NCBI GenBank assembly: GCA_035492855.1
Contig: DATJIU010000105.1
Location: forward strand, 20,188-84,187
Length of the DNA: 64,000 nucleotides
Reading direction: 5' to 3'
Source of the DNA: Dongiaceae bacterium
GTDB taxonomy: Bacteria > Verrucomicrobiota > Verrucomicrobiia > Limisphaerales > JAFMIX01
How positions within the stretch are numbered: the stretch's first letter is position 1; every line of letters starts with the position of its first letter. The notes under the pieces were generated by a model that was given only the letters and a program-made list of their open reading frames with translations, searched no databases and was not told where the DNA came from. Both the position numbers and the translations under genes were made by a program. Shown here piece after piece: positions 24,073 to 47,385 of the stretch.

Positions 24073-24081
24073 GCTTTGCGT

Positions 24082-24496: not shown

Positions 24497-25195
24497 ATGA
24501 AGACCGCGCTACTCTGCGTCGCCGTTACAGGCGCCCTCGCCGCCGGCGCCTCCGCCGCCGACGTGACCTGGCAGGCTCCGCATACCATTACCGGCCCTTC
24601 CGACGTGTACAATCTGGGCACCGGAAAAGGCACGTGGGCACCGTACAATTTTGACGCCTTCTCCGGCATTCCTGTGAATGGCGTCTCGTTCAACGCCTTC
24701 ACCGACATTGCCAACTTTGACAACAGCGGCATCGGGTTTGTGGATGGCGGGGCCTATTTTAATGCGACCACCAGCGATGCGAATTACAACCTGGTGATCC
24801 GCTCAGGCGGTTACGGCGGCAGCAATCCCGGCACGCTCAGCCTGAGCGGCCTGACCGCCGGCGACACCTACCTGGTTCAGTTTTGGGTGAACGACGGCCG
24901 GAACATCGGGCAGACCCGGTGGGAGACTTTCACCGGCGGGGCCAACACTTCGTCCGGCGTCTATTACGGTTCTGATGGCAGCGGCCTGGGGCAGTATGTC
25001 ATTGGCACCTTTGTGGCCGATGGCAGCGGCAACCAGTCGTTTACGGTGACGCCCTTTGCGCTCGATCAGAGCAGCATCCAGCTTAATGCGTTTCAGTTGC
25101 GGGATGTGACCGGCGTCCCCGAGCCCGCCACGCTGGCGATGCTGGGCGTCGGGCTGGCCGCGATGGGCTGGGCTTTCCGCCGGAAGGCCGTGTAA
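24497..25195 (+). CDS. PEP-CTERM-anchored secreted protein (232 aa)
   Basis: ATG 24497 gives signal peptide MKTALLCVAVTGALAAGASAA; C-terminus VPEPATLAMLGVGLAAMGWAFRRKAV = PEP motif + TM + basic tail. Confidence 0.8.
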   Translation: MKTALLCVAVTGALAAGASAADVTWQAPHTITGPSDVYNLGTGKGTWAPYNFDAFSGIPVNGVSFNAFTDIANFDNSGIGFVDGGAYFNATTSDANYNLVIRSGGYGGSNPGTLSLSGLTAGDTYLVQFWVNDGRNIGQTRWETFTGGANTSSGVYYGSDGSGLGQYVIGTFVADGSGNQSFTVTPFALDQSSIQLNAFQLRDVTGVPEPATLAMLGVGLAAMGWAFRRKAV

Positions 25196-25310
25196 GAAAA
25201 TGAGAAGTTTCCATCGTTCCCCGCCCGGGTGGAATGATGGTCTGGCAAGTGGATGGGTGTAGGGGGTGGCAAATCCCGGGCAGTTTCATCATTTCAATTC
25301 GTAGCGCAAA

Positions 25311-26204: not shown

Positions 26205-26235
26205 CCCTTTGTCTCCTCAACCCCCGAACCCCCCT

Positions 26236-29175: not shown

Positions 29176-29204
29176 TATTACCGGCATTGACATAACCCCA
29201 TCAG

Positions 29205-29238
29205 CCGCCGGACCATTCGCCTGGTCCGGCGGTTTTAT
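29205..29238 (+). terminator. Rho-independent terminator after the LamG/PATR gene
   Basis: 10-bp stem CCGCCGGACC/GGTCCGGCGG, 8-nt loop, then TTTTAT. Confidence 0.65.
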
Positions 29239-29311
29239 GACTGCTATCGGAGGGTTTCCCCAAATTTGATTCCGTTAAATTTTAGTAAAATTCCATCCTG
29301 AAACTGAATTG

Positions 29312-30010
29312 ATGATGAAACTTAATCTGCTTCTTTGCCTGGCAGCCTTGGGACTGGGCGGATGTGTTGCGGCCCCCAAACAAACGCCGGTGGCCGTGGC
29401 GGCGCCGGCGGACCGCGAATCCATCGAGTGGTGCGATATCTGGATTTCGCACGCCAACGAAACCAACCTGCCGCGGGTGTTGCTGATCGGCGATTCCATC
29501 ACGCGCGATTATTATCCCGACGTGGAAAAACATCTGGAAGGCCGCGCGTACGTGGGCCGGCTGTCCACCTCGCGGTTCATTTCCGATCCGGTGCTGCTGC
29601 GCGAGCTGGCGCTGGTGCTGGATGAATTTGATTTCTCCGTGGTGCATTTCAACAACGGCATGCACGGCTGGCAGCACAGCGAGGCGGAATATCGCGCCGC
29701 CTTTCCGGCGTTCTTCGCCACCATCCGCGCCCATGCGCCCCACGCCAAACTCGTGTGGGCCACCACCACGCCATTGAAGGTCTCGCCGGCCCAACCCCGG
29801 CCGGACGAAGCCACCGACACCCGCGTGGCGGCGCGCAACGCCATCGCCGCCGAACTGCTGCAACCCCAGGGCGTGGCCGTGGATGACTTGAATACGCTGG
29901 TGGCGGGGCATCCGGAATATCACAGCGACAACGTGCATTTCAACCGCCAGGGGATCGAACTCGAAGCCCAACAGGTGGCGGCGAGCATCGCCCCGTTGTT
30001 GCCGCGCTGA
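29312..30010 (+). CDS. SGNH/GDSL-family hydrolase lipoprotein (232 aa)
   Basis: ATG 29312 (track start 29309 is TTG); lipobox LGLGGC; block I LLIGDSITRDY, block III NNGMHG, block V DNVHFN. Confidence 0.8.
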   Translation: MMKLNLLLCLAALGLGGCVAAPKQTPVAVAAPADRESIEWCDIWISHANETNLPRVLLIGDSITRDYYPDVEKHLEGRAYVGRLSTSRFISDPVLLRELALVLDEFDFSVVHFNNGMHGWQHSEAEYRAAFPAFFATIRAHAPHAKLVWATTTPLKVSPAQPRPDEATDTRVAARNAIAAELLQPQGVAVDDLNTLVAGHPEYHSDNVHFNRQGIELEAQQVAASIAPLLPR

Positions 30011-30156
30011 GCCTGGTGGCGCGGAGCCGCCTGCGGTCGGGGAGACATGCCATGCCGTCGGAGTGCGCCCGACCTTGGACGCACCCCGACGTAAGTTCTG
30101 AGATGGGCTCTGGCATCCGCAGCCAGCCCGGGGTAATCTTTTGTTACCAAACTCAA

Positions 30157-32337
30157 ATGAAAATTGCCCTGGCCCTCACCCTGTCCGGCCTCTTCCTGGC
30201 TTCACTGGCCCGCGCGGTGGAAACCAACCCGCCCGCGCTGTACCTGGACCTCACCCAACCCGTGGACCGGCGGGTGGCGGATTTGATTTCGCGGCTGACG
30301 CTCGAGGAAAAGGCCATCCTGTTGAACCATCGCGGGCCGACCATCGAGCGGTTTCACATTCGCGCGGACCAGTGGAATCAATGTCTCAATGGCGTACAAT
30401 GGAACCGGCCCACCACGCTCTTTCCCAGTTGCATCGGCATGGCCGCCACGTGGGACACGAATCTCGTGCATGAGGTCGCCACCGCGTTATCCGACGAGGC
30501 CCGCGCCATTTACAACGGTTGGCATCTCGACCCCAACGCGCCCGGTCAGCACAAGGGGCTGATTTATCGCGACCCGGTCATCAATATCGGGCGCAACCCC
30601 TATTGGGGCCGCAACCACGAGGCGTGGGGTGAAGACCCGTTTCTCACCGGGAGCATGGCGGTGAGTTACGTGCAGGGCTTGCAGGGCGACGACCCGCACT
30701 ATCTGAAAATTGCGGCCACGCTGAAACATTACGCGGTCAACAACGTGGAGACGGACCGGCAGAAGCTGAACGCCGTGGTGTCCGAGCGCATGCTGCATGA
30801 ATACTGGCTGCCGCACTTTCGCGCGGGCGTGGTGGTGGGTGGCGCGAGTTCCTTGATGGCCAGCTACAACGCCATCAACGGCACGCCCAACAATATCAAC
30901 CACTGGCTGCTGACCGAGGTGTTGAAACAGGATTGGGGCTTTCAGGGCTTTGTGGTTTCAGATTTGGGCGGCGTCCGCACCATGGTGGAAGGGCACGAGA
31001 ACAAGCAGATGAGTTTGGAAGATGCCGTGGCGCGCAGCCTCATGGCGGGTTGCGATTTTTCCGACCGGGAATTTCAGGATTATATTCCCGCCGCCGTGCG
31101 CGATGGCAAGCTCACCGAAGCGAGGTTGGATGATGCCCTGACCCGCGTGTTGCGCGTACGGTTCCGCCTGGGCGAATTTGATCCTTTTACCGCTGTGCCA
31201 TACGGCAAGATTCCGCTCTCCGTCATCAACAGCCCCGCGCACCGGGAGCTGGCCTTGCAGGCGGCGCGGGAATCGCTCGTGCTGTTGCAGAACCGCGGGG
31301 GATTGCTGCCGCTGGACGCAAAAGCCATCAAAAGCATCGCCGTGCTGGGGCCGCTGGCGGACCAGATTGTGCTCAACAATTACAACGGCAAGGTGGGCGC
31401 GACGGTTACCGGGTTGCAGGGCATCCGCGATCGCGTGGGTTCCGGGGTGAAAGTGCTTTCCGCTGTTGGGGCCACGGTGGGCGGCGACCCGAATGCCGAA
31501 AAGAAAGAGCCGGCGGCGGCGGATCCGGCGGCAGCCCGGCAACAGGCCGTGGCGCTGGCCCGCCAGGCGGATGTGGCCATTGTTTTCGTGGGCACCACGG
31601 CGGCGGTGGAGCAGGAAGGCCGCGACCGTCAGACGTTGGGATTGACCGGTACGCAGGAGCAGTTGGTGGAAGCCGTTTGCGCCGCCAATCCGCGCACCAT
31701 CGTCGTGGAAATTAGCGCCGGGCCGTTGACCGTGCCCTGGATTGCCACTCACGCTCCGGCATTGCTCCAGGCCTGGTGGCCGGGCGAAGCCGGCGGACAG
31801 GCGATTGCCGAGGTGCTGTTCGGCGACGTGAATCCCGCCGGCCGCCTGCCGCACACGGTGTATGCCTCCGAAGCGCAGGTGCCGCCGGTGGAGGAGTACG
31901 ACATTACCAAGGGATTCACCTACATGTACGTGCAGGGCGCGCCGCTGTTTCCCTTTGGCCACGGACTGAGTTACACGACATTTCGCTATGATGATTTAAA
32001 ATTATCGGCGGCCCAAATAAAACCGGATGGCGCCCTCACGGCGAGTGTGGCGGTAAAAAATACCGGCGCGCGCGCCGGCGACGAAGTGGTGCAGCTCTAC
32101 GTGCATCAGGAACAAAGCCGGGTGAAACGTCCGGAGAAGGAATTGGAAGGCTTTGCGCGCATCCACTTGGAGCCGGGCGAAACGAAAACCGTCACCTTCT
32201 CCCTGACCGCGCCGCAACTGGCCTATTGGGATGAAACCGTCCATCACTTCGTTGTACCACCCGGGAAGTACGACGTGATGATCGGCGCTTCCTCGGCGGA
32301 CATCCGGGCGCAGGGCCAGTTGGAAGTGACGGAATAA
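30157..32337 (+). CDS. GH3 family beta-glycosidase (beta-glucosidase/xylosidase type), 726 aa
   Basis: ATG 30157 gives signal peptide MKIALALTLSGLFLASLARA; GH3 blocks KHYAVNN, GFVVSDLGGV, C-terminal fibronectin-like domain (VQLYV...RPEKELEGFARIHLEPGE). Confidence 0.88.
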   Translation: MKIALALTLSGLFLASLARAVETNPPALYLDLTQPVDRRVADLISRLTLEEKAILLNHRGPTIERFHIRADQWNQCLNGVQWNRPTTLFPSCIGMAATWDTNLVHEVATALSDEARAIYNGWHLDPNAPGQHKGLIYRDPVINIGRNPYWGRNHEAWGEDPFLTGSMAVSYVQGLQGDDPHYLKIAATLKHYAVNNVETDRQKLNAVVSERMLHEYWLPHFRAGVVVGGASSLMASYNAINGTPNNINHWLLTEVLKQDWGFQGFVVSDLGGVRTMVEGHENKQMSLEDAVARSLMAGCDFSDREFQDYIPAAVRDGKLTEARLDDALTRVLRVRFRLGEFDPFTAVPYGKIPLSVINSPAHRELALQAARESLVLLQNRGGLLPLDAKAIKSIAVLGPLADQIVLNNYNGKVGATVTGLQGIRDRVGSGVKVLSAVGATVGGDPNAEKKEPAAADPAAARQQAVALARQADVAIVFVGTTAAVEQEGRDRQTLGLTGTQEQLVEAVCAANPRTIVVEISAGPLTVPWIATHAPALLQAWWPGEAGGQAIAEVLFGDVNPAGRLPHTVYASEAQVPPVEEYDITKGFTYMYVQGAPLFPFGHGLSYTTFRYDDLKLSAAQIKPDGALTASVAVKNTGARAGDEVVQLYVHQEQSRVKRPEKELEGFARIHLEPGETKTVTFSLTAPQLAYWDETVHHFVVPPGKYDVMIGASSADIRAQGQLEVTE

Positions 32338-33811: not shown

Positions 33812-34432
33812 TTACTTCGGCAGCAACGCGGCGAGGTCGTCGTGCGGGCGGGCGATGACGTGGGCGGCGATGAGCTTGCCCAGCGAGCCGACGGCCTGGC
33901 GGCCGGCTTCCACGGCGGCGGTTACGGCGGCCACGTCGCCCCGCACCATGACGGTCACGTAGGCGGCGCCGATCTTTTCCTTGCCCACGAGCGTCACGTT
34001 GGCGGACTTGAGCATGGCGTCGGTGGCTTCGAGCACGGCGGTCAATCCCTGGGTTTCGAGGATGCCCAGGGCTTCAGGTTTGGAGGTCATAATCTTTTCA
34101 GCAGGTTGCGGATGATCGGCGGGCAGGAACTGGTCGCGCCCGCCGTACAGCGCGTTGATGGAGTTGGGAAAATTCAGGAGCGGGTTGAGCCCGGCCTCGG
34201 GCCGCGCCAGGCAATGCGTCACCGCCGTGGCGCCGAGTTCGCGCACGCGGGCCTCCACGGCGGCCAGCGCGGCGGTCACCGCCGCCACGTCGCCCTCCAG
34301 CCGGATCATCAAGGATTCGTTGCCGGTGGTCTCGATGCCCGCCAGGCGCACGTCCGCCGCCTTCACCGCGGTATCGGCGGCGATGGCGGTGAGGCTCAGA
34401 AATGGCACTTCGGCCAGACCCAGGGCGTTCAT
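33812..34432 (-). CDS. Bacterial microcompartment shell protein with two BMC (PF00936-like) domains (206 aa)
   Basis: C-terminal canonical BMC-H-like domain [57 protein letters not shown]...HVIARPH; diverged N-terminal copy [54 protein letters not shown]; ATG overlaps aldolase stop (ATGA 34429-34432). An internal start (MTSKPE) giving a 93-aa BMC-H cannot be excluded. Confidence 0.85.
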
Positions 34433-35448
34433 GAGGAGTGCGGCCGCAATTTGCCCAGCACCTCGCGGACGACGCGTTCCACGTCCACCCGGGCCGGGGT
34501 GTTGGTGGTGGCGGCGGCGCGGGAACGTTCACAGGCGCTGGCCGCCTCGGCAAAACCGGCGTCTGCCAGCACGCACGCCAGCCGCCCGCGCAGGGATTCC
34601 AAAATGGTCTGTTCGCCGGCCGAAAGCGGAAACCGCGCGTGCCCGACATTAAAGCCGCGCAATTCATAACCGGCGCGGAAGCCCTCCGGGAAATTTGGCG
34701 CGCCGACCATGAGCGAAAACAGGTCGAGCAATTTGAACTGCAGCCGCTTGGCCTCCGTCCAGTTGCCGGCGCGGGCCTCGTGGTACAGCTTCATCACCAC
34801 CTCCGGCGCCACGCCCGCGGTGGACAGCGTGCCGCCGTCCGCGCCGAGGAACAGCGCCGAGCATAGCAATTCCTCCCAGCCAATGAGCACGCCGAAATCG
34901 GGCCGCTGGCTTTTGATTTCGTGCAGCGTGAGCTGGAAGCGGCAAAGGTCCTTGGAAGTGTCCTTGGTGCCAACGATGCGCGGGCAGTCGAGCGCCAGCC
35001 GCTTGAGCACCGGCAGCGAAATTTCGTTCGCGAACGCCGGGATGTTGTACACCACAATGTCAATCGGCGACCGCGCGGCAAGTTCGCGGAAATAGGCTTC
35101 GATGCTCTCCTGCGTGAGCTTGTAATAATACGGGCCGGTGATGGACACCGCGCGGCAGCCGAGGTCAGCGCAATAGCGGCACATCTCCAGCACCAGATCC
35201 ACGTTCGGCTCGGCGGCGCCCGCGAGGATGGGCCGGCCCCCGGCCTCCTCCACCACGATTTTCAGCACGCGCTTCCGCTCCTCGTAACTGAGCCGGATAA
35301 ATTCGCCCATGCTGCCGTTGGGGTAATAACCGGTCACGCCCTTCTCGCCCAGCCAGCGGATGATGCGGCGCAGCTCGTCCTCGTTAATGCGGCCGGAGGC
35401 CTCGTAAGGAACGATGTTCGGAACAAATATGCCGGAAAGCGGCGTCAT
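34429..35448 (-). CDS. DHDPS/NAL-family class I aldolase, probable 2-keto-3-deoxy-L-fuconate aldolase, with C-terminal extension (339 aa)
   Basis: Family blocks [18 protein letters not shown], Schiff-base Lys in RIVGTKDTS; operon context with fuconate dehydratase and lactonase; approx 35-40 extra C-terminal residues ([31 protein letters not shown]). Confidence 0.8.
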
Positions 35449-35451: not shown

Positions 35452-36285
35452 TCAGATACGGTAAAGGGTTTCGGCGTTTTTGCGAAAGAGTTTTTCCTGC
35501 TCCGCCGGAGAACACCCGGCAAACAGTTTGCGGGTGGCATTGACCCAGGATTGCAAGTCCGCAGCCAGGGTGCAGACCGGCCAGTCGCCGCCCCAGAGCA
35601 GACGGTCAAAACCGAACTGCGCCACCACCACGTCAATCCACGGACGCAACGTCGCGGGTGTCCAGCCGCGCCCGGCCACGGTGACCAGGCCGCTGACCTT
35701 GCAGGCCACATTGGGGTGCGCGGCCAGTTGGGCGATGCCGGTTTTCCAGGCCGGGAGGCCTTCCGGCGTCAGACCCGAGAGCCCGCAATGATCGAGCACG
35801 AACCGTACGTCGGGACATTGCCGCACCAGCCGGAGCGCCAGCGGCAGTTGCCGGGCCAGCACGCAGAGATCAAACGTGAGGTGATGCGGCGCGAGCCGGC
35901 GGACATTCTCCACAAACCGGAGCTCCTGCGAAACCGCATCTGGCACCACGTGCAAGACCCGGCGCACCCCGCGCACCTGCGGCAAAGCGAGCAACTGCTC
36001 CAGTTGGACGGGGAAATCCGCATGTTCGGGACGGCAGGCGGCCACGATACCGGCAATGAGCGGATTCGCGGCCGCCAGCGTTTGCACGTGCCGGGCTTCC
36101 GCCAGCATGTGTGGTTCGTCCACGTCGCATTCCACAAAGACAGTGCGGGTAATGCCGGTGTCGCGGGCGGCGGCCTGATAATCAGCGAGGCGGAACGGCC
36201 GGTTCAGTTCCGGAATGCCCGCGCACCAGGAATACGGGAACTGGCCCGGGTCCCAGAGGTGTTGATGCGTGTCAATGAGGGTCAT
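35452..36285 (-). CDS. Amidohydrolase-2 family lactonase, probable L-fucono-1,5-lactonase (277 aa)
   Basis: ATG 36285 (MTLIDTHQHLWDP...) overlaps dehydratase stop; metal-ligand-type HxH start motif and later VLDHCG block typical of the family. Confidence 0.8.
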   Translation of the reverse strand: MTLIDTHQHLWDPGQFPYSWCAGIPELNRPFRLADYQAAARDTGITRTVFVECDVDEPHMLAEARHVQTLAAANPLIAGIVAACRPEHADFPVQLEQLLALPQVRGVRRVLHVVPDAVSQELRFVENVRRLAPHHLTFDLCVLARQLPLALRLVRQCPDVRFVLDHCGLSGLTPEGLPAWKTGIAQLAAHPNVACKVSGLVTVAGRGWTPATLRPWIDVVVAQFGFDRLLWGGDWPVCTLAADLQSWVNATRKLFAGCSPAEQEKLFRKNAETLYRI

Positions 36286-37508
36286 GCGGGCTTCAAATCG
36301 CAGCTCGCGCCGGCTTCCTGCGGGGTTTGATACACCCCCCCGGTCACGCAACATGGGTGCACAAAATGTTCGCGCAGGTGCGGGATGTGTTCGAGAAAGA
36401 CCACCTCATGGCCGAGCGCGATGTGGTTGCAGAGCACGAGATGCTGATGCAACTGGCCCATGTCGCCCACATGCGGGACGACCGGCACGCCGAACTTGCG
36501 ACAGAGCAGGCTCACCGCCAGAAATTCGCTCACGCCCGCCACGCGCACGGCATCCACCTGGATGAACCCGGCGCATTTGGCCTGGAGATAATTTTTGAAA
36601 ACGATGCGGTTGGGCACGTGTTCGCCCAGCGCCAGCCGCGTGGGCGCGATGGCGGCGGCGAGCTGCTGATGGCCGCGCACGTCGTCGGGATGCGTGGGCT
36701 CTTCAATCCAGAACGGGTCCATGGCCTGCAAGCGCGGGCAAATGGCGAGCGCCTGCGGGAGCGTCCACTGCTGGTTGGCATCCACCATCACGCGGGCCTT
36801 TGGCCCGGCGGCTTCGCGCACGATGGCCGCCCGGCGCAGATCCCGTTCCGGGTCGCGCGACCCCACCTTCAGTTTCATGGCGGTGAACCCGGCAGCCACG
36901 GCCCGGCGACAGTTCTCCCGCACCTGGTCATCGTCGTAATTGAACCAGCCCACGGAGGTGTCGTAACCGGGATAACCCGTTTTCAGGATGCCTTCGCGAC
37001 TGCTGCGCGTGGGTTGGTGGGCGCGCAAAATTTCCAGCGCGGCGGAGGACGTGAGTTCGTCCTCGAGATAGGAAAAGTCGAGCGTGGCGACCAGTTGTTC
37101 CGGCGTGAGGTCGAGCAGCAGTTTCCACAACGGCACGCCCCGGGTCTTGGCCCACAAATCCCAGCACGCATTGGTGACCGAGGCCAGTGCGAGCTGCACC
37201 ACGCCCTTGTGTGGCCCCAGCCAGCGGAATTGCTGTTCATCGGCCATCCGGCGCTGCCACGCGCCAAAGTCGGCCATGATTTCCTCAATGTCCCGGCCGG
37301 CGAGTTCGCGGGCGTAAAAGGCGGCGGCAGCGCAAACGAGTTCATTGCCGGCGCCCAGCGTGAAGGCCAGGCCCGTGCCGGTGTGACCCCGATCATCCTG
37401 CAACAACGTGGCCGCGTAGGAATAAATCGGGTCGCGGTGGATGGCGTCGCTGCCGTGACCGGAGCCGATGGCATAGCGCGCATCGCGGGTGGAAATGTGC
37501 CGGATCAT
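36282..37508 (-). CDS. fucD: L-fuconate dehydratase (enolase superfamily, MR subgroup), 408 aa
   Basis: ATG 37508 (MIRHISTRDARYAIGSGHGSDA...); FRWLGPHKGV, MVDANQQW, WIEEPT, LALGEH blocks parallel characterised FucD; the ORF's 5' extension to 37970 overlaps the SDR gene and is rejected. Confidence 0.88.
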   Translation of the reverse strand: MIRHISTRDARYAIGSGHGSDAIHRDPIYSYAATLLQDDRGHTGTGLAFTLGAGNELVCAAAAFYARELAGRDIEEIMADFGAWQRRMADEQQFRWLGPHKGVVQLALASVTNACWDLWAKTRGVPLWKLLLDLTPEQLVATLDFSYLEDELTSSAALEILRAHQPTRSSREGILKTGYPGYDTSVGWFNYDDDQVRENCRRAVAAGFTAMKLKVGSRDPERDLRRAAIVREAAGPKARVMVDANQQWTLPQALAICPRLQAMDPFWIEEPTHPDDVRGHQQLAAAIAPTRLALGEHVPNRIVFKNYLQAKCAGFIQVDAVRVAGVSEFLAVSLLCRKFGVPVVPHVGDMGQLHQHLVLCNHIALGHEVVFLEHIPHLREHFVHPCCVTGGVYQTPQEAGASCDLKPA

Positions 37509-38287
37509 AGGCTGGACGTGCGCCGGTAACCGAGTTCCGCGCCGCCGCTGACGTGCAGGAGGTGGCCGGTGATGAAGCGCGCCTTGTCCGAAAGCAGAAA
37601 CACGCACGCATCGGCCACGCTGTCGCCTTCCGGGCAATAACCGAGCGCGTGGATGTCGTTGAGATAATGCTCCACGGCGGCGGGATTGGGCTGTTCGGTA
37701 CACCACTGGCGGAGCATGGGCGTCCAGACACCGGCGGGGCACACGGCATTCACCCGGATACCGTAGCGGGCGTAATCCAGCGCCATGGATTTGGTGAGCG
37801 TGTTCATGCCGCCCTTGGTGGCCGTGTAGGCGGCGTGAATTTCCTGGCCGATCACCCCCACCAAACTGGACGTGCTGAGAATGGCCCCCTTGGCGGCCTG
37901 GAGGGCGGCGAAGGCGTGGCGCGTGGTGTGCAGGATGCTTTTCAAATTGGTGTTGAACAGCGCGTCCCACTCCGCATCGGTGGTCTCATGGAGCGGCTTG
38001 CTCGGCGAACTGATACCGGCGTTGTTATGGACGGCATCCAGCCGGCCATAGCGGGCGAGTGTTTTTTCCACGGCCTGTCGCACCTGTTCGTCATTGGCCA
38101 CATCGCACACGAGGCCGAGATGCGCCGCGCCCAGTTCGGCGGCGGTGCGGGCCACGGCGGTGGCGTCGCGCGCGACAATCACCACGCGCGCGCCTTCCGC
38201 AACGTAAGCCTTGGCGCATTCGCGGCCAATGCCGCACGAACCGCCTGTTACCAAAATGACCTTGTCCTGAAGCAATGGGGTACTCAT
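37505..38287 (-). CDS. Short-chain dehydrogenase/reductase, probable L-fucose 1-dehydrogenase (260 aa)
   Basis: ATG 38287; cofactor motif TGGSCGIG, NNAG, catalytic YTATK; substrate inferred only from operon context. Confidence 0.8.
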   Translation of the reverse strand: MSTPLLQDKVILVTGGSCGIGRECAKAYVAEGARVVIVARDATAVARTAAELGAAHLGLVCDVANDEQVRQAVEKTLARYGRLDAVHNNAGISSPSKPLHETTDAEWDALFNTNLKSILHTTRHAFAALQAAKGAILSTSSLVGVIGQEIHAAYTATKGGMNTLTKSMALDYARYGIRVNAVCPAGVWTPMLRQWCTEQPNPAAVEHYLNDIHALGYCPEGDSVADACVFLLSDKARFITGHLLHVSGGAELGYRRTSSL

Positions 38288-38700
38288 GGCTGAAAGAAAA
38301 TTTCCTTGGTGTCCGACCAGATTTTGCCCTTGGCGGCGGCATCGGGCAGCGGGGACTGGCAGGGGTCGGTTTCCTTCCACCACCGCTGCGTCTCCGGGTC
38401 GGCGGCCATGCGCGCCATGTCGGCGTCGTAATTCGTCCCGGTGTATTCCAGGTAGGCGAACAGGTACGTTTTGCCGTCAATGGTGCATTCGTGGATGGAG
38501 AAATTCTGAATGTGGCAGTCCTTGATGGTCTTCAGCACGCCAGGCCAGGGATGGGCGTGGAGTTCGTGGTAATACGCCGCCTTGTCGGGCTTGAGGCCGG
38601 TGACCCAGGCCAGGCGTTGCGGGGCGGGCCGGGTGGCGCAGCCGGCGAACAGGCCGGCAGCGAGCAGCCCTACCAAAGGAATGAGAGTTCGAGGTTTCAT
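38284..38700 (-). CDS. L-rhamnose-mutarotase-family (RhaM/YiiL-like) protein with lipoprotein signal peptide (138 aa)
   Basis: N-terminus MKPRTLIPLVGLLAAGLFAGC (lipobox); mature part YHELHAHPWPGVLKTIKDCHIQNFSIH...LFAYLEY...ETQRWWKETDPCQ parallels RhaM. Confidence 0.75.
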   Translation of the reverse strand: MKPRTLIPLVGLLAAGLFAGCATRPAPQRLAWVTGLKPDKAAYYHELHAHPWPGVLKTIKDCHIQNFSIHECTIDGKTYLFAYLEYTGTNYDADMARMAADPETQRWWKETDPCQSPLPDAAAKGKIWSDTKEIFFQP

Positions 38701-38703: not shown

Positions 38704-40419
38704 TTAACGAAAGCAGAAATAGAGCACCACAAACACCGCCAGCACCGTGCCGGCGATGACCCGGTAATCCGTCAGCGCCACGCGGGCCAGGGGGCCGCGC
38801 ACGGGCGCGCGCCAGTCTTCCCAGATGAGCAGGCGGGCTTCGGGTTTCAACGGATCCGGAAACAAGAAGGTGGTGATCACCATGAGAACGAGGCACGCCA
38901 CCAGAAGCAGAAACGCGATGAGCATGAAGTCGCCGCGGTAAATATTGTTCCAGTCCAGGTAAAAGGTCACGCCGCCCAGGGCCATGCCCGCAATCAGCGT
39001 GATGAACGCGGAACGCCCGGAGGCCCGCCGCCAGAATACTCCGAGCAGAAACACCGCCGTGATGGGTGGCGCCACGTAGGAGATGAGTTTGTTGATGCCC
39101 TCAAAAATCGTGGTGTAGTGACCGAACAACGGCGAGGCGACTATGGCCACGACCGTGCCGACAACGGTGGTGATTTTCCCGATGGTGACCAGTTGATGGT
39201 CTTTGATTTCCGGGCGGTGGCGCTTGAACAAATCGTAGGCCACGAGCGTGGCGGTGGAGTTGAGGGCGGCGGAGCAGGTTTGCATGGCGGCGGCCAGCAT
39301 GGCGGCGGCGACCAGGCCCTTGAGGCCGACCGGCAGCAGATGGGTGATGAGAAAGGTGTAGGTGTCGGCGGCAGTTTCCGGCGCGGCGCCACCAAAGGCA
39401 TTTTTTTGCACCAGCGCCACACAGATGACGCCGGGCAGCACAAAGAGAAACACCGGCCAGATTTTCAGGAACGCGCAAAACAGGGGGCCGAGCCGGGCAT
39501 TCCGTTCATCCTTGGCGGCAAGCACGCGTTGCACGATGGTCTGGTCGCAGCACCAGTACCAGATGCCGAGCACGGGATAGCCGAGCAGGATGGAATACCA
39601 CGGCAGACCGCTGGGATCGTGGGCGTCGCGGGCCATGCTGAGAAAGTTGCCCGTGCCCCAGGTGACCTGGCTGCCGGCCCCGGCGGCCAGCGGATGCGGA
39701 TGCGTGGCGAGGGTATGGGCGAGTTCATGCCAGCCGCCGATTTTCAGGTACCCGGTGACGGTGATGACCACCGCGCCCACGAGCAGCAGGACGGTTTGCA
39801 CGCTTTCGGTCCACACCACCGCGAGCAGGCCGCCCAGCATGGTGTAAACGCCGGTGAGCAGTCCCAGCACCGTGATGAATAGCAGGAGCGCATCCACGCC
39901 CAGAAGCGTGGCCCCCGGTTCGAGACCAAGAATGCCGCGCAACACCCACGCGGCGGTGTAGAGCGCCACGCCCATGTGAATGACCAATGCCGAGAACAGC
40001 GAGATGACCGACAGCACATCGCGGCAGCCACGGTTGAAGCGGCGCTCCAGGAAGTCCGGCAGCGTGGCCACGCGCGAGCGCAGATACAGCGGGGCGAAAA
40101 AGAGCGCGAGCAGAATGAGGGTGAAGCCCGCCATCCATTCAAAATTGCCGAACACAATTCCGTACTTGTAGGCCGCTTCCGCCAGGCTGACGAGGTGGAC
40201 GGTGGAGATGTTGGCGGCGAACATGGCCAGCCCGATGACCGGCCAGGCAAGGGTGTTGCCGGCCAGGAAATAATGCCCGCCTTCGCCGCCGCGTTCCCCC
40301 GAACGCCGCCGCAAGCCCGCACCCACGCCCAGCCCCACCACGGCGAGCAGATAAATGACGATGATGGTCCAGTCAACGTGGCTCATGGATTGATCGAGAA
40401 TGGATCTTGTCGGAGCCAT
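38704..40419 (-). CDS. Sodium:solute symporter family (SSS/SGLT-like) transporter (571 aa)
   Basis: ATG 40419; 13-14 hydrophobic segments, SSS-like N-terminal block YFLAGNTLAWPVIGLAMFAANISTVHLVSLAEAAYKYG; 3-nt gap to next gene. Confidence 0.88.
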   Translation of the reverse strand: MAPTRSILDQSMSHVDWTIIVIYLLAVVGLGVGAGLRRRSGERGGEGGHYFLAGNTLAWPVIGLAMFAANISTVHLVSLAEAAYKYGIVFGNFEWMAGFTLILLALFFAPLYLRSRVATLPDFLERRFNRGCRDVLSVISLFSALVIHMGVALYTAAWVLRGILGLEPGATLLGVDALLLFITVLGLLTGVYTMLGGLLAVVWTESVQTVLLLVGAVVITVTGYLKIGGWHELAHTLATHPHPLAAGAGSQVTWGTGNFLSMARDAHDPSGLPWYSILLGYPVLGIWYWCCDQTIVQRVLAAKDERNARLGPLFCAFLKIWPVFLFVLPGVICVALVQKNAFGGAAPETAADTYTFLITHLLPVGLKGLVAAAMLAAAMQTCSAALNSTATLVAYDLFKRHRPEIKDHQLVTIGKITTVVGTVVAIVASPLFGHYTTIFEGINKLISYVAPPITAVFLLGVFWRRASGRSAFITLIAGMALGGVTFYLDWNNIYRGDFMLIAFLLLVACLVLMVITTFLFPDPLKPEARLLIWEDWRAPVRGPLARVALTDYRVIAGTVLAVFVVLYFCFR

Positions 40420-40440: not shown

Positions 40441-42567
40441 TTATCTGTTGGCATAGTCAACGCCCGATGTTCCCGCACTGATGGTGAATCGTTTGCCCCG
40501 GGCGCACACCTTCAGCAACTTGCCGGTGAAAGGTCGTGGCGTCTTCGGATCTGCCAGAAGTATTTTTCCGTCCAGCGATGGCGCGAAACCGAAGAACGTG
40601 TTTACCACAACATCCGCAAACGCCGCGCCACTGATGCATTCCTTCATGCAGCCTTCGCGCTCGGCGATTCGCACCGGCGCATCATATTGTTCCCGGTGCG
40701 GCCCATAAAATTCCCGCGCCTGCGCGAACGGCCCTTCCTGGGTCACCTCTGCCGTCCGGCAGTATAAATCAAACGCTTCGTCCGGGAATCCCAGGCGCCA
40801 CATCGTGCCGACCGCCAGTGCCGGCCAGCCGTCGTACGCCCCCATCGGGCCGTGGTCGGGGCGGTCGGAAACGGCCGCGGCGGCGTCCTTTAGGCTCATG
40901 GCGCGCATCCAGTCGCGCGTGAGCAGTTCGCGTTTGACGAAATCCGTCATTTCCCGGCGCATGTCAGGGGTCAGGTCAGGGGCCAGCGCATTACCGACAT
41001 AGATGTAGTCAACGCAATGCCGCAGCTCGACGCGCCGGCCATCCAGGTGCAAGCCGGACCACACCCCGGCGCCGGGTTGGTAAAGCGCCAGCACGGCGGG
41101 CAAAAGTTTTTCCGCGGCGGCGCGAAGTTCCCGGGCGCGGGCCGCATGGCCTTTCAATTCCTGAAGGTCGGCATCCTGGCGCATCATCCAGACATCTTGC
41201 GCATTACAAGAAGCGACGCGGTGGATGTAGGCGGGCGCGCATTCGAGCAGGTTTCCGTTCTCGCCGTAATCGGCCAGCGGGCTGTCGGGCCGGACCAGTG
41301 TTTTCCAGTCCGTGGCCATATCGTCCATGCGTTGCAGCACGGTTTTACCGTCCTCCAATTTTTCATCGAGAAAGGCCCGATCGCCGGTGACGCGCAAATA
41401 ATCCAGCGCGGTTTTGAAAATCGTGCAGGCGTTGAATGCGTAGCCGGTGATTCGGTCGTGAGCTTTGGCGTCAAAACCGTTGGTTTCGGTGAGATAAATG
41501 ACCTGCCCGCTGCGGACGTTTTGCGCCAGCCAGCGGCGCAACGCAGCCTTCATCCCGGCGGGTTCGAGCAGGGCCCAGACGGTGCCCTGCATGGAGGCGT
41601 CCCAATAAAATTGCGTGCCGGGCGCGCGTTCGCCGCTGGTAATGAAGGATCGCGGATGCACCGGAAACTGCGTGCGCTCCAGTTCCAGCAGCGTGACGAT
41701 GCCCATGTAATAATTCCGCTTCAGCGCCGCGTTGTCCGTGACGAGCACCGGCAGGCTGCCGGAAAAATGTGAGTTGCCCGGCGTAAATGCATCCGCCCAG
41801 CGTTGCTGCCAACAATGCTTAAAGCCGTCGAATTCGGCCGAAAAATGTTTGCGCCACTGCGTCACATCCGCTTGCACCTGCGGCGCATCCGCCTCCCGTC
41901 CGTCACCGGCGACAAATCCAATTTCCGTTTTGCCGCCGGCGGACAGCGGGATTTTCCATTGCCAGCGCACGATGCCATTGTCGTTCGTCAGCGAGTCGGG
42001 CTTCATCGTGGGACAAATCACCGTGGCAAAACCCGGACGCTGATTGGTGTTAAGCACGGAAATTCCGTCCGGCTGCAATGCGCCTGAAACCGACAGCGCC
42101 AGTTCCACATTGGTTTTGGTCGTGGCGGGATTGGTGATCTGCACGCGGACGAGCCCGGCGCGCTGCTCGTTGATCATCCGCGTGTCCGTTTCGACCGCCA
42201 GCCCGCCGCAATTGGAATTGCGGCGCAGGGCGCGATACGGATACCAGCGGCATTCCGTCGCCGGATATTCTTTGCCGGCGATCGTCAGGGTGACCAGGGG
42301 ATAGCCCGCCCGCCACTTTCCGTCTCCCCAGCCCCATAACCAATCGTCGGGATTGCAGAAAAACGAAGTCAGATCCCGGTTGATTATCAGCATGTCGTGA
42401 AAATTATTCACGTCCGGCGGATTGGCCACATCCGGCATCGGCAGCCAATCACCAGCCAGCTCATCGAGCGGCGGCACGCCAGCCGGCGGCGTTTGCGCCC
42501 AAATGGGGAAGGCCAGAAAAGCCAGGACCGTGGCCAGTCCGAAGCCCGATGATGGATTCAACTTCAT
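40441..42567 (-). CDS. Secreted 708-aa protein of unassigned family (possible glycoside hydrolase)
   Basis: Signal peptide MKLNPSSGFGLATVLAFLAFPIWAQ; long uninterrupted ORF packed between a GH29 gene and the symporter (13- and 21-nt gaps); no family motif recognised by eye. Confidence 0.7.
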   Translation of the reverse strand: MKLNPSSGFGLATVLAFLAFPIWAQTPPAGVPPLDELAGDWLPMPDVANPPDVNNFHDMLIINRDLTSFFCNPDDWLWGWGDGKWRAGYPLVTLTIAGKEYPATECRWYPYRALRRNSNCGGLAVETDTRMINEQRAGLVRVQITNPATTKTNVELALSVSGALQPDGISVLNTNQRPGFATVICPTMKPDSLTNDNGIVRWQWKIPLSAGGKTEIGFVAGDGREADAPQVQADVTQWRKHFSAEFDGFKHCWQQRWADAFTPGNSHFSGSLPVLVTDNAALKRNYYMGIVTLLELERTQFPVHPRSFITSGERAPGTQFYWDASMQGTVWALLEPAGMKAALRRWLAQNVRSGQVIYLTETNGFDAKAHDRITGYAFNACTIFKTALDYLRVTGDRAFLDEKLEDGKTVLQRMDDMATDWKTLVRPDSPLADYGENGNLLECAPAYIHRVASCNAQDVWMMRQDADLQELKGHAARARELRAAAEKLLPAVLALYQPGAGVWSGLHLDGRRVELRHCVDYIYVGNALAPDLTPDMRREMTDFVKRELLTRDWMRAMSLKDAAAAVSDRPDHGPMGAYDGWPALAVGTMWRLGFPDEAFDLYCRTAEVTQEGPFAQAREFYGPHREQYDAPVRIAEREGCMKECISGAAFADVVVNTFFGFAPSLDGKILLADPKTPRPFTGKLLKVCARGKRFTISAGTSGVDYANR

Positions 42568-42580: not shown

Positions 42581-44398
42581 TCAGTTCAGCAATTCAATTT
42601 CGCTGAGGGTGGGACCCTGGGTGGCATCGAGAATTTCCAGCCGGAATTCCCGCGCCGTCACGGGATCGAACTTTTGCTCGAAATGTTCGCCCAGCGTGGT
42701 GCCGCTGAAAATGGTTTTCCATGCGGCGCCGTCGCGATACTGAAATGCAAACTTTTGCACACGCCCGGCATAGGCCTCCGCCACGCGCAGGCCGCGGATG
42801 GTTTGCGCCGTTTCCCAACTGGCGGTGATCCAGGCCTGCCGGGTTTCGTCGTCCGTGGCCCAGCGGGTTTCCCGGTCGGAATCAAAGGCGAGCTGCGGGC
42901 CGTAACCGGTGTCCTGGTGCTGGTAAATGTTGGAGGCGGTCGTTTTGATTTCCGGGCCGGGATCAATGGCCGGCGCGCCTTGGAATTGCAACACCACGGT
43001 GGTGGAAATGGGATCGGCGGCTTCCGCCGGCAATGCTACGGTGACACCGGCGGCATCGGCTTGCACTGCCAGCGCGGTTTGCTTGGGGTCCGCCAGCAGA
43101 TAGGCCCGGTCAATTTTGCTGTGCAATCCGGGCACCAGCAGTTGGCCGGCGGCGGGCCAGTCCAGCACATGCAGGTACAGCGTGGTGGTCGTGCCGGTGC
43201 GCCGCTGGGTGCAGCGGCCCCAGGTCAAACGGCGGGCAAAGGGGCTGGCGGTGGTGCCGTAAATCGCTTCGCCGTTAACCGCCATCCAGACCCCAATGTC
43301 ATGCAGGCGCTCCAAACTCGAGGCGGGGATCAGTCCGGCGCTGGTCGGCCCGACGTTCAGCAGATAGTTGCCGCCCTTGCTGGCACAATCAATCAGGTTG
43401 CGGACCAGGGTCTGCGCCGACTTCCAGTGCGTGTCGTTTTTGTTGTAACCCCAGTGGTCGTTCATGGTCATGCAGGATTCCCAGTCCACTCCCGGACCAA
43501 AACCCGAGGGCGGGATGTTTTGTTCGGGCGTGCCATAATCGCCAATCTTTTCCGCGCCGGTGTCCATGCCGGCCATGCCATCGCGGGCCTTGCCGACCCG
43601 GTTGTTGACAATGATCTCCGGTTGCAGGCGGCGCACGTAATGATAGAGGTCGGCGCCGCGGGCGCCCGTCCACGGGCTCTCCCATTCGCCGTCAAACCAC
43701 AAAATCCCAATCGGGCCGTAGCGCGTGAGCAGTTCCTTGAGTTGGCCTTTCATGAAGGCGACATAGCGGTCCATGTCGGGCGGGCCGGCGGTGGCGGCGA
43801 GGTCGTTCCACGCCCGGCGGGTGCCCCAGTCGGGGTGATGCCAGTCCATGATGGAATAGTAGAGACAAAACCGGATGCCGGCGGTTTTGCAGGCGGCGGC
43901 CAGTTCCTGCAGGGGATCGCGCTGGAACGGCGTGCGCCGAATGCCCCAGTCATTCAGGTCGGACCGGAACATGGCAAAGCCGTCATGATGTTTGCTGGTG
44001 ATGACGATGTATTTTACTCCCGCCGCCTTGGCCGCCGCCACCCAGGCGGTCGCATCAAATTTCACCGGGTTGAATTCCGACGCATACTTTTCGTACTGGC
44101 TCACCGGCATGTGGGTTTCTTCCAGAAACCATTCGGCGTAGTTGGTCTGCCCCTGCCATTCACCGGCCGGCACGGAATAGACTCCCCAATGGATAAACAG
44201 GCCGAAGCGGGCCTCCCGGAACCATTTCATCCGCGCGTCTTTTTGCGCGGCGGTTTCGGTAACGGAAGCCGGCGGCGGTGCGGCGGTTTCCTGGGCGGAT
44301 GCGGCGGGGAGAAACCGGCCGGCAAGGCCGAGGGTGACTCCTAGCATGAGCTGCAGGGATTTTGACCGGAACATTCTTGGCAGAGGGATTTTTTTCAT
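42581..44398 (-). CDS. GH29 alpha-L-fucosidase with C-terminal F5/8 type C (discoidin) domain (605 aa)
   Basis: Start at ATG 44398 (MKKIPLPRMF...; alternative at 44431); GH29 blocks RFGLFIHWGVYS, YIVITSKHHDGFAMF; C-terminal discoidin block RWATDD...FDPVTAREFRLEILDATQGPTLSEIELL. Confidence 0.9.
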   Translation of the reverse strand: MKKIPLPRMFRSKSLQLMLGVTLGLAGRFLPAASAQETAAPPPASVTETAAQKDARMKWFREARFGLFIHWGVYSVPAGEWQGQTNYAEWFLEETHMPVSQYEKYASEFNPVKFDATAWVAAAKAAGVKYIVITSKHHDGFAMFRSDLNDWGIRRTPFQRDPLQELAAACKTAGIRFCLYYSIMDWHHPDWGTRRAWNDLAATAGPPDMDRYVAFMKGQLKELLTRYGPIGILWFDGEWESPWTGARGADLYHYVRRLQPEIIVNNRVGKARDGMAGMDTGAEKIGDYGTPEQNIPPSGFGPGVDWESCMTMNDHWGYNKNDTHWKSAQTLVRNLIDCASKGGNYLLNVGPTSAGLIPASSLERLHDIGVWMAVNGEAIYGTTASPFARRLTWGRCTQRRTGTTTTLYLHVLDWPAAGQLLVPGLHSKIDRAYLLADPKQTALAVQADAAGVTVALPAEAADPISTTVVLQFQGAPAIDPGPEIKTTASNIYQHQDTGYGPQLAFDSDRETRWATDDETRQAWITASWETAQTIRGLRVAEAYAGRVQKFAFQYRDGAAWKTIFSGTTLGEHFEQKFDPVTAREFRLEILDATQGPTLSEIELLN

Positions 44399-46377: not shown

Positions 46378-47385
46378 ATGTCCATTCAGCCGACTTATCA
46401 GGCTCGTAACGAACGCTACGGCATTGACCGTTGCGAGCCGCAGAAGCGCGCGGTCAGCGAGGGCAAGATCGAGTTTCACGCGCTGACCAAGGGACATTAC
46501 CCCGGCCGGCCCGTGCCGCGCAACGTGTTGCCCGGCCTGAACAGCATCGGTTACTGGAGCGCCGGCGCCATGCAGGATTGGGGCGAGGATCCCCACCGGA
46601 ACGAGGGCATGGAAATCCTGTTCCTGGAAACGGGCTCCATTGATTTCACCGCCGACCAGAAGACGCATCACCTGCACGCGGGACATTTCACCATCACCCG
46701 CCCGTGGCAGTTGCACAAGCTTGGCGCGCCGAACATCGGGCCCGGCCGCCTGCACTGGCTCATCCTCGATGTGGGTGTGCGCCGGCCGCACCAGGAATGG
46801 ACCTGGCCCAAGTGGGTGGTGCTCACCCGCAACGACCTGGCGCGGCTGACGCGCAAGTTGCGGCACAACGAAAATCCGGTGTGGACGAGCACGCCGCCCA
46901 TTGCGGCGTCGTTCCGCGAAATTGCGCGGTGCGTGGAGGCGTGGGACCAGCCGCACGCCATTTCGCGCCTGGCGGTTTCGTTGAATCAGTTGCTCATTGG
47001 CATCCTCGACGCGTTGGTGGAACAGCAGACGCAGGAAAATGAACAGCTCACCTCGCGCAAGCGCGCGGTGGAGATGTTCCTGCGTGATCTCGAGGCCGGC
47101 CGCGCCAACGTGGGCGAAGCCTGGACGCTCAACCGTATGGCCGCGCATTGCAGCATGGGCGTGACGGCGTTTTCCAAATACTGCCGCGAGCTGGTGAACA
47201 TCGGGCCGATGGAATATCTGAACCGCTGCCGGCTGGACCTGGCGGCGCGGCGGTTGCGGGAGGACAAGAGCCGGTCCATCACGGAAATCGCCTTCGATTG
47301 CGGCTTCAACTCCAGCCAGTATTTTTCCACGCGTTTCCGCCAGCGGTTTCACCAGTCGCCCCGGCGGTTTGTGAGTAAGGATTGA
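46378..47385 (+). CDS. AraC-family transcriptional regulator (335 aa)
   Basis: Cupin-like N-terminus; C-terminal double HTH (LNRMAAHCSMGVTAFSKYCRELVNIGPMEYL...ITEIAFDCGFNSSQYFSTRFRQRFHQSPRRF); divergent from the fucosidase/fucose array. Confidence 0.85.
   Translation: MSIQPTYQARNERYGIDRCEPQKRAVSEGKIEFHALTKGHYPGRPVPRNVLPGLNSIGYWSAGAMQDWGEDPHRNEGMEILFLETGSIDFTADQKTHHLHAGHFTITRPWQLHKLGAPNIGPGRLHWLILDVGVRRPHQEWTWPKWVVLTRNDLARLTRKLRHNENPVWTSTPPIAASFREIARCVEAWDQPHAISRLAVSLNQLLIGILDALVEQQTQENEQLTSRKRAVEMFLRDLEAGRANVGEAWTLNRMAAHCSMGVTAFSKYCRELVNIGPMEYLNRCRLDLAARRLREDKSRSITEIAFDCGFNSSQYFSTRFRQRFHQSPRRFVSKD

Follow-up and report, generated by a model that had tools for sequence, protein, structure and literature searches.

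A tandem-BMC shell gene translationally coupled to a DHDPS-family aldolase with an encapsulation-peptide-like tail in Verrucomicrobiota

The shell gene and its aldolase partner

The window analyzed here is a stretch of 64,000 nucleotides (positions 20,188 to 84,187 of contig DATJIU010000105.1, assembly GCA_035492855.1) from a bacterium deposited as Dongiaceae and placed by GTDB in the verrucomicrobial lineage Limisphaerales. On its minus strand, at the end of a predicted sugar-catabolic operon, lie the two genes that are the subject of this report: one for a class I aldolase of the DHDPS/NAL family (34429..35448, 339 aa), whose C-terminus resembles an encapsulation peptide (EP), and directly downstream of it one for a shell protein of bacterial microcompartments (BMC; 33812..34432, 206 aa). 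Both open reading frames (ORFs) are present where a preliminary description of the window, made from the DNA letters, had placed them, and so is the ATGA at 34429..34432 (-), in which the stop of the aldolase gene overlaps the start of the shell gene.

The 206-aa product is a non-permuted tandem-BMC (BMC-Ts) shell protein. Its match to the Pfam model PF00936 falls into two stretches (E 3.9e-39; 132.9 bits against a cutoff of 24.5), the better of which covers residues 121-196 in the C-terminal domain, and the tandem-BMC model CcmO of NCBIfam aligns to it from end to end, with a score below the equivalog cutoff of that model. An AlphaFold2 model of the single chain, computed with 121 homologues as input (confidence score pLDDT 83.8), shows an N-terminal domain at residues 3-86 (34175..34426 (-)) and a C-terminal domain at residues 120-203 (33824..34075 (-)), each with the non-permuted secondary-structure order E-H-E-E-H-E(-H), which in the N-terminal domain includes the last helix; the pTM of 0.44 leaves the orientation between the two domains undefined. 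The best fold matches in a Foldseek search of the PDB are PduT, the BMC-T1 protein of Haliangium (HO) and an engineered fused BMC-H, all of the non-permuted BMC-Ts type. The sequence had been read as holding a diverged N-terminal and a canonical C-terminal repeat, and this is borne out, with the C-terminal domain 53-62 % identical to PduA, PduJ, EutM and CcmK (CcmK2) in the PDB. The linker described between the repeats also exists, but it is shorter than the roughly 45 aa first estimated: in the structure model the low-confidence segment spans about 33 residues (87-119; 34076..34174 (-)).

The residues through which BMC tiles contact each other, defined as a KAAN-type lysine and an (A/P)RPH-type motif (PMC8217296), are kept in both domains, as VKAAD and ARPE in the first and as LKSAN and ARPH in the second; in the family alignment K24, P78, K142, R195 and P196 are invariant and H197 nearly so. 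In the C-terminal domain the residues from K151 to T160 are invariant or nearly so among 121 sequences, and the pore loop (KEKIGAAY) is invariant within Verrucomicrobiota. The inter-domain segment, too, has a motif (N90, N93, L95, G98, D100, Q101, L103, D106) that is invariant in 121 verrucomicrobial sequences and is predicted to be disordered (pLDDT <50 for residues 89-102); across phyla only its L and P columns survive. This motif may be a binding site. As for other shell-protein classes, a permuted BMC-Tsp or BMC-Tdp protein is ruled out by the domain topology in the structure model and the PDB matches, and a PduT-like iron-sulfur (Fe-S) protein is ruled out by the pore loop, which contains no cysteine.

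The upstream ORF encodes a DHDPS-family class I aldolase. PF00701 matches residues 4-286 (E 5.4e-50, 170 bits), and the sequence blocks from which the family had first been recognized, including the Schiff-base lysine, prove to be invariant in 121 homologues (K162 in GTKDTS, Y134 in VYNIP, and G45-S46-x-G48-E49-F50). Its closest solved relatives are two 2-keto-3-deoxy-sugar-acid aldolases, the KDG/KDPG aldolase of Picrophilus (4uxd) and YagE of E. coli; the solved relatives have 289-343 residues, and none of their alignments runs past about residue 290 of the query. The AlphaFold2 model (pLDDT 84.5, pTM 0.82) comprises the barrel and C-terminal helices up to about residue 305. As had been expected, the enzyme is not a true DapA (129.8 for the dapA model against an NCBIfam equivalog cutoff of 206.15), and NanA is likewise ruled out (127.9 for nanA against 382; 148.1 for PRK04147 against 281).

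The aldolase does extend beyond the normal end of its fold, and the preliminary description of this extension as a linker followed by an EP-like helix holds. After the fold, which ends at about residue 305 of 339, the model has a disordered stretch at 309-321 (pLDDT <50) and then an isolated helix at 323-333. These correspond to a low-complexity linker of poorly conserved columns (residues 306-320; 34489..34533 (-)), whose length and sequence vary among homologues (the aldolases measure 326-366 aa), and to an EP-like amphipathic helix (residues 321-334; 34447..34488 (-)). The core of this helix, V-E-x-I-V-R-x-V-[ML]-x-x-[LM], recurs in 118 of 120 aldolase homologues, and the two exceptions look truncated. 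Its hydrophobic moment is 0.59 against 0.61 for the EP of EutC, an amphipathicity that 7 % of shuffles reach and that is only modestly above that of shuffled sequences. A position-specific scoring matrix (PSSM) of 14 columns was built from 104 unique aldolase tails: the N-terminus of EutC from E. coli K-12 (MDQKQIEEIVRSVMASM) scores 34.0 bits, the window's own aldolase tail 32.5, the N-terminus of an aldehyde dehydrogenase (AldDH) from a related microcompartment locus (L045, discussed below) 13.2, and the N-terminus of EutE from the same E. coli strain 11.3, against a background maximum of 1.4 bits over 17,342 sequence windows from the other proteins of the 64 kb, among which no further EP-bearing protein was found. 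Residues 1-19 of EutC have been shown by experiment to target GFP to Eut shells (PMC4594438).

An EP has been defined as an amphipathic helix of 15-20 aa at a protein terminus, attached by a poorly conserved linker and carried by the BMC-associated orthologues of an enzyme and absent from the others (PMC4594438). Helix, linker and distribution are all found in the aldolase tail, the distribution being judged from a sampling of loci that was not unbiased. Among representatives of the DHDPS family at 50 % identity, only the nearest (P0241, 54 % identical, 342 aa) has a genuine tail, and relatives of full length with 41-47 % identity measure 303-321 aa and lack it. The survey of tails against shell genes that had been proposed was run at the level of loci: of the DHDPS genes in all loci retrieved, 71 have a tail and adjoin a BMC-T gene, six have a tail and do not adjoin one, two adjoin one and have no tail, and 22 have neither, a tally in which the positive and negative locus sets were picked by different queries. 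Two of the six tailed, non-adjacent cases (L021 and L062) are artifacts of ORF calling in which the BMC-T gene really is adjacent, and in three more (L027, L034 and L055) it lies 6 kb away in the same locus. The negative control P0246, chosen as a tail-less representative, has as its closest metagenomic relative a protein (in L088) with both tail and BMC-T neighbor, and may therefore be a truncated entry; the remaining 30 negative-control loci contain distant DHDPS genes with neither a tail nor a BMC gene nearby. Sequence comparison and structure modeling thus support a genuine extension at the C-terminus, built like an EP and of the same sequence class, for which a targeting function is predicted.

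Conservation of the pair and its contiguity with PVM loci

Relatives of the shell protein were sought in one genome per GTDB species and are present in at least 531 species genomes, which makes the module a common one; the neighborhoods of the best 80 of these were examined. Nearly all of the 80 come from metagenome-assembled genomes (MAGs) of Verrucomicrobiota, namely Opitutaceae, Akkermansiaceae, Luteolibacter, Limisphaerales, Chthoniobacterales and subdivision 3, and the family is tight, with lengths of 205-210 aa and identities above 70 % among the best 120 matches. A DHDPS gene stands directly upstream of the shell gene in 68/80 loci, at a distance of -13 to +359 nt (median 6). If aldolases cut by a contig edge (L041, L072) or frameshifted (L056), all with the tail present, are counted, a tailed DHDPS lies directly upstream in 71 of the 76 assessable loci. 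Elsewhere the shell gene is at the contig edge and uninformative (L070), is truncated (L083), has transposase or insertion-sequence ORFs inserted upstream of it (L016, L022), is an orphan with no aldolase (L024, L059), or is preceded by an 809-aa protein while the EP-tailed DHDPS is found 6 kb downstream in the same sugar-acid cluster (L027, L034, L055). The other neighbors vary freely, so that the conserved unit is the two-gene pair, and its adjacency is far beyond chance.

Some of these divergent loci have features of their own. In the three loci from Akkermansiaceae/Luteolibacter (L027, L034 and L055, at 7556-9985 in each) the 809-aa protein that takes the place of the aldolase directly upstream of BMC-T has no Pfam match, and the cluster also holds two MR_MLE dehydratases, a short-chain dehydrogenase/reductase (SDR), a CoA-transferase and a thiolase. 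The orphan BMC-Ts genes of L024 (3972-6899) and L059 (6064-8953) are both immediately followed by a gene for a SpoIIE-like protein of about 718 aa. Ten contigs of verrucomicrobial character (L010, L012, L014, L017, L020, L026, L029, L044, L068 and L080) are titled in GenBank as other taxa (Bifidobacteriaceae, Bifidobacterium, Akkermansia, Bacteroidota, Omnitrophota, Hydrogenedentota), and are probably mislabeled or chimeric bins.

The aldolases fall into two subgroups: A, 72-84 % identical to the window's enzyme and found in fucose-type contexts, and B, 54-64 % identical, with longer linkers and with pyrroloquinoline quinone (PQQ) dehydrogenases and SMP-30 lactonases nearby. For 64 of 73 shell proteins the nearest neighbor belongs with an aldolase of the same subgroup, which argues for cognate pairing. 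One MAG (LacPavin_0818_WC55_MAG_61_14; L046 and L067) has a module of each subgroup, with shell proteins 56 % identical to each other and a degraded tail on the subgroup B aldolase. Additional DHDPS-like paralogues occur near subgroup B modules (L045 4926-6065; L005 13784-14842; L019 5150-6265 and 14053-15159). Those of L045 and L005 have signal peptides of the twin-arginine translocation (TAT) type (…RREFLQ…), and the L005 paralogue, which was scored, has no EP tail; PQQ/cytochrome c dehydrogenases are encoded near the paralogues in L005 and L019. Taken together, these features hint at a periplasmic branch of sugar oxidation.

The pair extends beyond Verrucomicrobiota. The metagenomic locus L088, met in the negative-control scan, has an MR_MLE dehydratase, an SDR and a 342-aa DHDPS ending in ...TEQIGKIVAEVIRQMQGNR, followed after 36 nt by a 205-aa tandem-BMC protein that is 39 % identical to the window's. 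Shell homologues of this type with a DHDPS of about 338-340 aa directly upstream occur in a MAG of Latescibacteria (L120) and in a metagenome contig (L121) that, like L088, is related to it, and the same pair is present in a planctomycete MAG of the Isosphaeraceae (L124) and in a further lineage (L122, L123). The shell homologue of the Isosphaeraceae measures 213 aa, is 42 % identical to the window's and has the same aldolase partner. These cross-phylum aldolases are 47-51 % identical to the window's, and all end in a linker and an amphipathic helix (TEIQAIVAEVVRQM, DRIEQVVLEVMDAL, DRVSQIVTSVVHEL).

The module also touches the microcompartment of Planctomycetes and Verrucomicrobia (PVM), which has been characterized for lactaldehyde derived from fucose and rhamnose (PMC4207490). 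In L045, from the verrucomicrobial MAG SPRUCE 434, the tailed aldolase and BMC-Ts are followed within 1.2 kb by genes of a PVM-type locus: a phosphotransacylase (PTAC), three BMC-H, an AldDH, two BMC-P and a class II aldolase (PF00596), a set that matches the description of PVM loci (PMC4207490; PMC8217296). By the model PRK15398, which it passes, the AldDH is of BMC type, and its sequence, starting MSAVNETLVRDIVSEVLGRL, opens with an EP. In L048, a PTAC and a BMC-H gene adjoin the pair. The other 78 loci have no main-locus gene in the 10 kb around the pair; the module is thus normally distal, that is, a satellite in the sense of the 2021 catalogue of BMC loci, where a related BMC-Ts clade (Ts_mud / T_pvm) is entered as 'PVM (sat)' (PMC8217296). 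The window itself, with one PF00936 gene and no PF03319 gene, is without the BMC-H and BMC-P pair, as a satellite locus would be.

Operon context and the proposed role of the module

The genes upstream of the pair bear on the substrate of the aldolase. On the minus strand, in the order of transcription, they encode two GH29 alpha-L-fucosidases (42581-44431 and 44645-46348; PF01120, E 4.3e-98 and 3.2e-80), a 708-aa protein with no Pfam or NCBIfam match (40441..42567), a sodium:solute symporter (38704..40419; PF00474, E 2.4e-66), a RhaM-family mutarotase with a lipoprotein-type signal (38284..38700; PF05336, E 8.2e-25), an SDR resembling sugar 1-dehydrogenases and a candidate L-fucose dehydrogenase (37505..38287), an enolase-superfamily acid-sugar dehydratase resembling L-fuconate dehydratase (36282..37508; MR_MLE_C, E 1.2e-53) and an Amidohydrolase_2 protein resembling L-fucono-1,5-lactonase (35452..36285; PF04909, E 1.2e-52), after which come the aldolase and the shell protein. 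The SDR, the only one in the operon, passes a glucose 1-dehydrogenase subfamily model (217.3 against a cutoff of 215) and scores 168.7 against the L-fucose dehydrogenase model, below its cutoff of 300; the best NCBIfam model for the dehydratase is L-talarate/galactarate dehydratase, below cutoff, and the lactonase-like protein reaches 115 bits against a cutoff of 400 for FuconLaconase. The operon contains no FAH-type hydrolase. With no pathway-specific model passed at its equivalog cutoff, homology and gene context point to a non-phosphorylative route of L-fucose type, the route that had been proposed and with which the gene content agrees.

ATGA overlaps join four junctions of this operon, from the mutarotase to the SDR, from the SDR to the dehydratase, from the dehydratase to the lactonase (provided that the lactonase starts at an internal Met, MTLIDTHQHLWD) and from the aldolase to BMC-T, which speaks for tight translational coupling along the whole pathway. 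That the shell gene closes the operon, as had also been stated, is true in the sense that it is the last conserved gene; a consensus scan after it found no terminator, and its place as operon end rests on that conservation. An AraC-family regulator (HTH_18, AraC_binding and Cupin_2 domains) is encoded divergently upstream (46378..47385 (+)); L001, L002, L038, L063, L071 and L073 likewise have an AraC gene next to the module. The lipoprotein-type signal peptide of the mutarotase (MKPRTLIPLVGLLAAGLFAGC) suggests export; its orthologue in L001 (112 aa) has no such signal.

We propose, with a probability of about 0.7, that the aldolase and shell protein form a satellite 'plug-in' module for a PVM-type metabolosome, which encapsulates the aldolase of the non-phosphorylative route. 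L-fucose released by the GH29 fucosidases would enter this route and be converted by mutarotase, sugar 1-dehydrogenase, lactonase and dehydratase to 2-keto-3-deoxy-L-fuconate (KDF), which the DHDPS-family aldolase, to judge from homology and operon context, would cleave to pyruvate and L-lactaldehyde. The C-terminal EP on its flexible linker would carry the aldolase, and with it the release of the toxic lactaldehyde, into the lumen of the microcompartment, where the acylating AldDH and PTAC of a main locus elsewhere in this genome would consume it. The BMC-Ts, made together with the aldolase by translational coupling, would take its place as a pseudohexameric tile in the facets of that microcompartment's shell. 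There it would most likely serve as a conduit through which the anionic KDF enters as substrate and pyruvate leaves as product, as a docking tile for the aldolase, or as both, roles favored by the co-diversification of tile and enzyme and by the precedent of the 'EUT modules' taken up below. The window has, besides, FucI, FucU and a major facilitator superfamily (MFS) transporter at 10695-14618 (+), 20 kb from the operon; we count them in favor of the satellite proposal because they are the front half of the phosphorylative route, which PVM compartments serve, and the organism accordingly appears to run both fucose routes.

Several observations weigh against this proposal. As the preliminary description had already pointed out for BMC-P, AldDH and PTAC, the Pfam and NCBIfam matches in the 64-kb window include no BMC-H, BMC-P, AldDH or PTAC gene, and main-locus genes occur within 10 kb of the pair in only two of the 80 related loci, L045 and L048. 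The aldolase passes no NCBIfam equivalog, and KDF as its substrate is a deduction from the operon context; in subgroup B, with its PQQ dehydrogenases and SMP-30 lactonases, the aldehyde may be a different one. The pore or conduit role of BMC-Ts is conjectural, and a search for shell-protein positions that discriminate the two aldolase subgroups found none. The association of tail and shell gene, which comes from differently queried locus sets, also has breaks: a tailed aldolase in L089 has no BMC gene within 6 kb, and the aldolases of L067 and L081 adjoin BMC-T and have degraded tails.

The absence of other shell genes from the window, and from the 10 kb around the pair in 78 of the 80 related loci, is also what one would expect if no complete microcompartment were needed and BMC-Ts instead built up sheets, tubes or a small complex to which the aldolase attaches by its tail, channeling KDF or lactaldehyde to cytosolic enzymes. 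The tight 1:1 translational coupling of enzyme and tile, the co-diversification of the shell proteins with their aldolases and the orphan BMC-T copies in unrelated contexts (L024, L059) fit such a scaffold as well. It is nevertheless hard to reconcile with the contiguity of the pair and a full PVM-type locus in L045, with a tail resembling the EPs of known or predicted luminal enzymes, the AldDH of that very locus among them, with edge motifs for tiling with other hexamers that are invariant in both domains, and with the listing of related BMC-Ts proteins, in the catalogue, as satellites in genomes with PVM main loci (PMC8217296). The preliminary description had offered satellite locus and scaffold as alternatives; the contiguity in L045 and L048 and the 'PVM (sat)' entry favor the former, and we regard a shell-independent scaffold as distinctly unlikely. 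Even less credible is that the C-terminal helix is an oligomerization or regulatory element of this aldolase clade, next to BMC-T for reasons of co-regulation only. It is true that shuffled sequences can match the amphipathicity of the helix at the rate given above, and that the ordinary last helix of some DHDPS proteins of normal length scores moderately with the tail PSSM (12.1 bits in P0287, 8.1 in P0310); yet the helix stands outside the fold, at the end of a disordered linker of variable length, its core is nearly identical to the validated EP of EutC, and it recurs in the BMC-T-adjoining aldolases of at least three phyla despite core identities of 47-51 %.

Other alternatives keep the module and alter its chemistry or its autonomy. 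Instead of or besides KDF, the aldolase might cleave 2-keto-3-deoxy-L-rhamnonate (L-KDR, from rhamnose) or a 2-keto-3-deoxy-pentonate or -hexonate, with another aldehyde, for example glycolaldehyde, as the product. The closest solved relatives being the promiscuous KDG/KDPG aldolase and YagE, the lack of an equivalog match, the RhaM family of the mutarotase together with a RhaT transporter in L001, and the setting of the subgroup B modules beside PQQ dehydrogenases and SMP-30 lactonases rather than fucosidases all leave room for this. The GH29 fucosidases, the fuconolactonase-like amidohydrolase and the FucD/TalrD-like dehydratase that surround the module in this window and in most loci of subgroup A point the other way, as does the characterization of the PVM compartment for lactaldehyde from fucose and rhamnose, and we consider a different substrate rather improbable here. 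With similar reserve we entertain the idea that the pair is a self-contained, transferable 'adapter cassette', in which BMC-Ts is both the receptor for the tail of its own aldolase and the gate for its substrate. Were this so, two genes alone would suffice to give any PVM-like metabolosome a new pathway that generates an aldehyde, and the versions of subgroups A and B, Latescibacteria and Planctomycetes would feed different sugar acids into one organelle; it would be the first case in which a cargo protein evolves and moves together with the shell tile that belongs to it, and here, too, the class I aldolase would be a second signature enzyme of the PVM compartment.

Known counterparts and wider surroundings

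The nearest functional counterpart of the aldolase is PvmN, a class II aldolase (PF00596) that likewise releases L-lactaldehyde from a fucose/rhamnose intermediate and likewise has a C-terminal EP on a variable linker (PMC4594438); it occurs in the same host phyla, and L045 has both aldolases in one locus. The two are unrelated in fold and mechanism, PvmN being metal-dependent whereas the window's enzyme is a class I Schiff-base TIM barrel (PF00701), and in chemistry, the predicted substrate of the latter being a non-phosphorylated keto-deoxy acid and its co-product pyruvate rather than dihydroxyacetone phosphate (DHAP); and unlike PvmN, the window's enzyme is encoded in a distal sugar operon with a BMC-Ts of its own. 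In pathway terms it parallels FucH, an L-KDF aldolase (Watanabe, 2020, cited in PMC11199699), which also acts by a Schiff-base lysine and also follows mutarotase, dehydrogenase, lactonase and dehydratase, a likeness drawn by pathway position. Enzymes of that kind are described there as cytosolic and from anaerobes, and the accessible text mentions no link to BMCs, EP tail or BMC-T partner (PMC11199699).

As a genomic arrangement, the pair recalls the 'EUT module' satellites, in which EutABC accompany an EutL-type BMC-Tsp in the HO, SPU3 and SPU6 BMCs (Sutter et al., 2021), in that an aldehyde-generating enzyme is combined with one dedicated trimeric shell protein; the catalogue proposes that these modules open a main BMC to one more substrate, which would enter through BMC-T (PMC8217296). 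Their enzyme is, however, a B12-dependent lyase rather than a class I aldolase, their shell protein a permuted Tsp rather than a non-permuted Ts, and their host another BMC type, and the window's enzyme and tile genes are translationally coupled. PduS and PduT provide a further example of an enzyme gene habitually paired, often in a satellite, with a cognate BMC-Ts gene, and PduT is among the best structural matches of the window's protein; but PduT has a pore cysteine for an Fe-S cluster and is concerned with electron transfer, while the window's protein lacks a pore cysteine and has an aldolase for a partner. On the side of the tail, the EPs of EutC (IEEIVRSVMASM) and EutE (IEQVVKAVLLKM) from the EUT systems of E. 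coli and Salmonella have a core near the tail consensus VE.IVR.V[ML]..[LM] and combine a helix with a linker rich in Ala, Pro and Ser. They are N-terminal, in contrast to the C-terminal tail in the window, which sits on an unrelated enzyme family and is predicted from its sequence to be an EP.

The shell protein may be related to the Ts_mud / 'T_pvm' clade of the catalogue, which, going by its description, comprises non-permuted tandem-BMC proteins of 202-233 aa, located away from the main PVM locus and mostly from Planctomycetes; a planctomycete homologue of the window's protein is the 213-aa one of the Isosphaeraceae, with its aldolase partner. No Verrucomicrobia are among the clade members covered here, and the catalogue's text does not mention an adjacent enzyme. 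The catalogue tabulates the enzyme families associated with BMCs without PF00701, which appears once in its supplement for an unrelated feature of MUF2 loci (PMC8217296); in the part of its file of EP hidden Markov models (HMMs) that was covered, the only one labeled PVM is for the flavoprotein PvmL (PMC8217296). A survey of EPs from 2015 names the class II aldolase as the signature enzyme of PVM, and its authors know of no further EP-bearing BMC proteins (PMC4594438). A literature search that reached few subscription papers turned up no account of the DHDPS partner or of its tail, and a figure of PVM satellite loci in the catalogue may already show the aldolase gene. The preliminary description knew of no account of the pairing; BMC-Ts proteins as PVM satellites are in fact already on record, and it is the aldolase partner and its tail that appear to be new.

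The PVM microcompartment is central to the use of fucose- and rhamnose-rich polysaccharides of algae and plants by Verrucomicrobiota and Planctomycetota, and has so far been described with one signature enzyme, the class II aldolase that the phosphorylative route supplies. If the satellite proposal is true, the organelle gains a second and mechanistically unrelated signature enzyme, the DHDPS family joins the short list of enzymes that bear EPs, and the supposedly 'cytosolic' non-phosphorylative route also delivers lactaldehyde into the compartment, which would bear on why cells choose BMC-based over cytosolic fucose catabolism, a question raised earlier (PMC8857213). The module is also a compact natural example of a cargo with its cognate shell tile, and as such of interest to engineers who want compartments to take up new pathways.

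The fucose operon is flanked by a region resembling a polysaccharide-utilization locus, a run of glycoside hydrolases on the plus strand at 14760-32337 (GH36 with NPCBM, GH92, GH97, GH95 and GH3), which also encodes a PEP-CTERM protein, a 1026-aa LamG/Ig protein and a GDSL esterase. On the other side of the operon, at 51802-58395 (+), the window contains a two-partner secretion (TPS) pair, a ShlB/FhaC-type transporter and a 1407-aa exoprotein with a TPS domain, which is unrelated to the shell/aldolase module.

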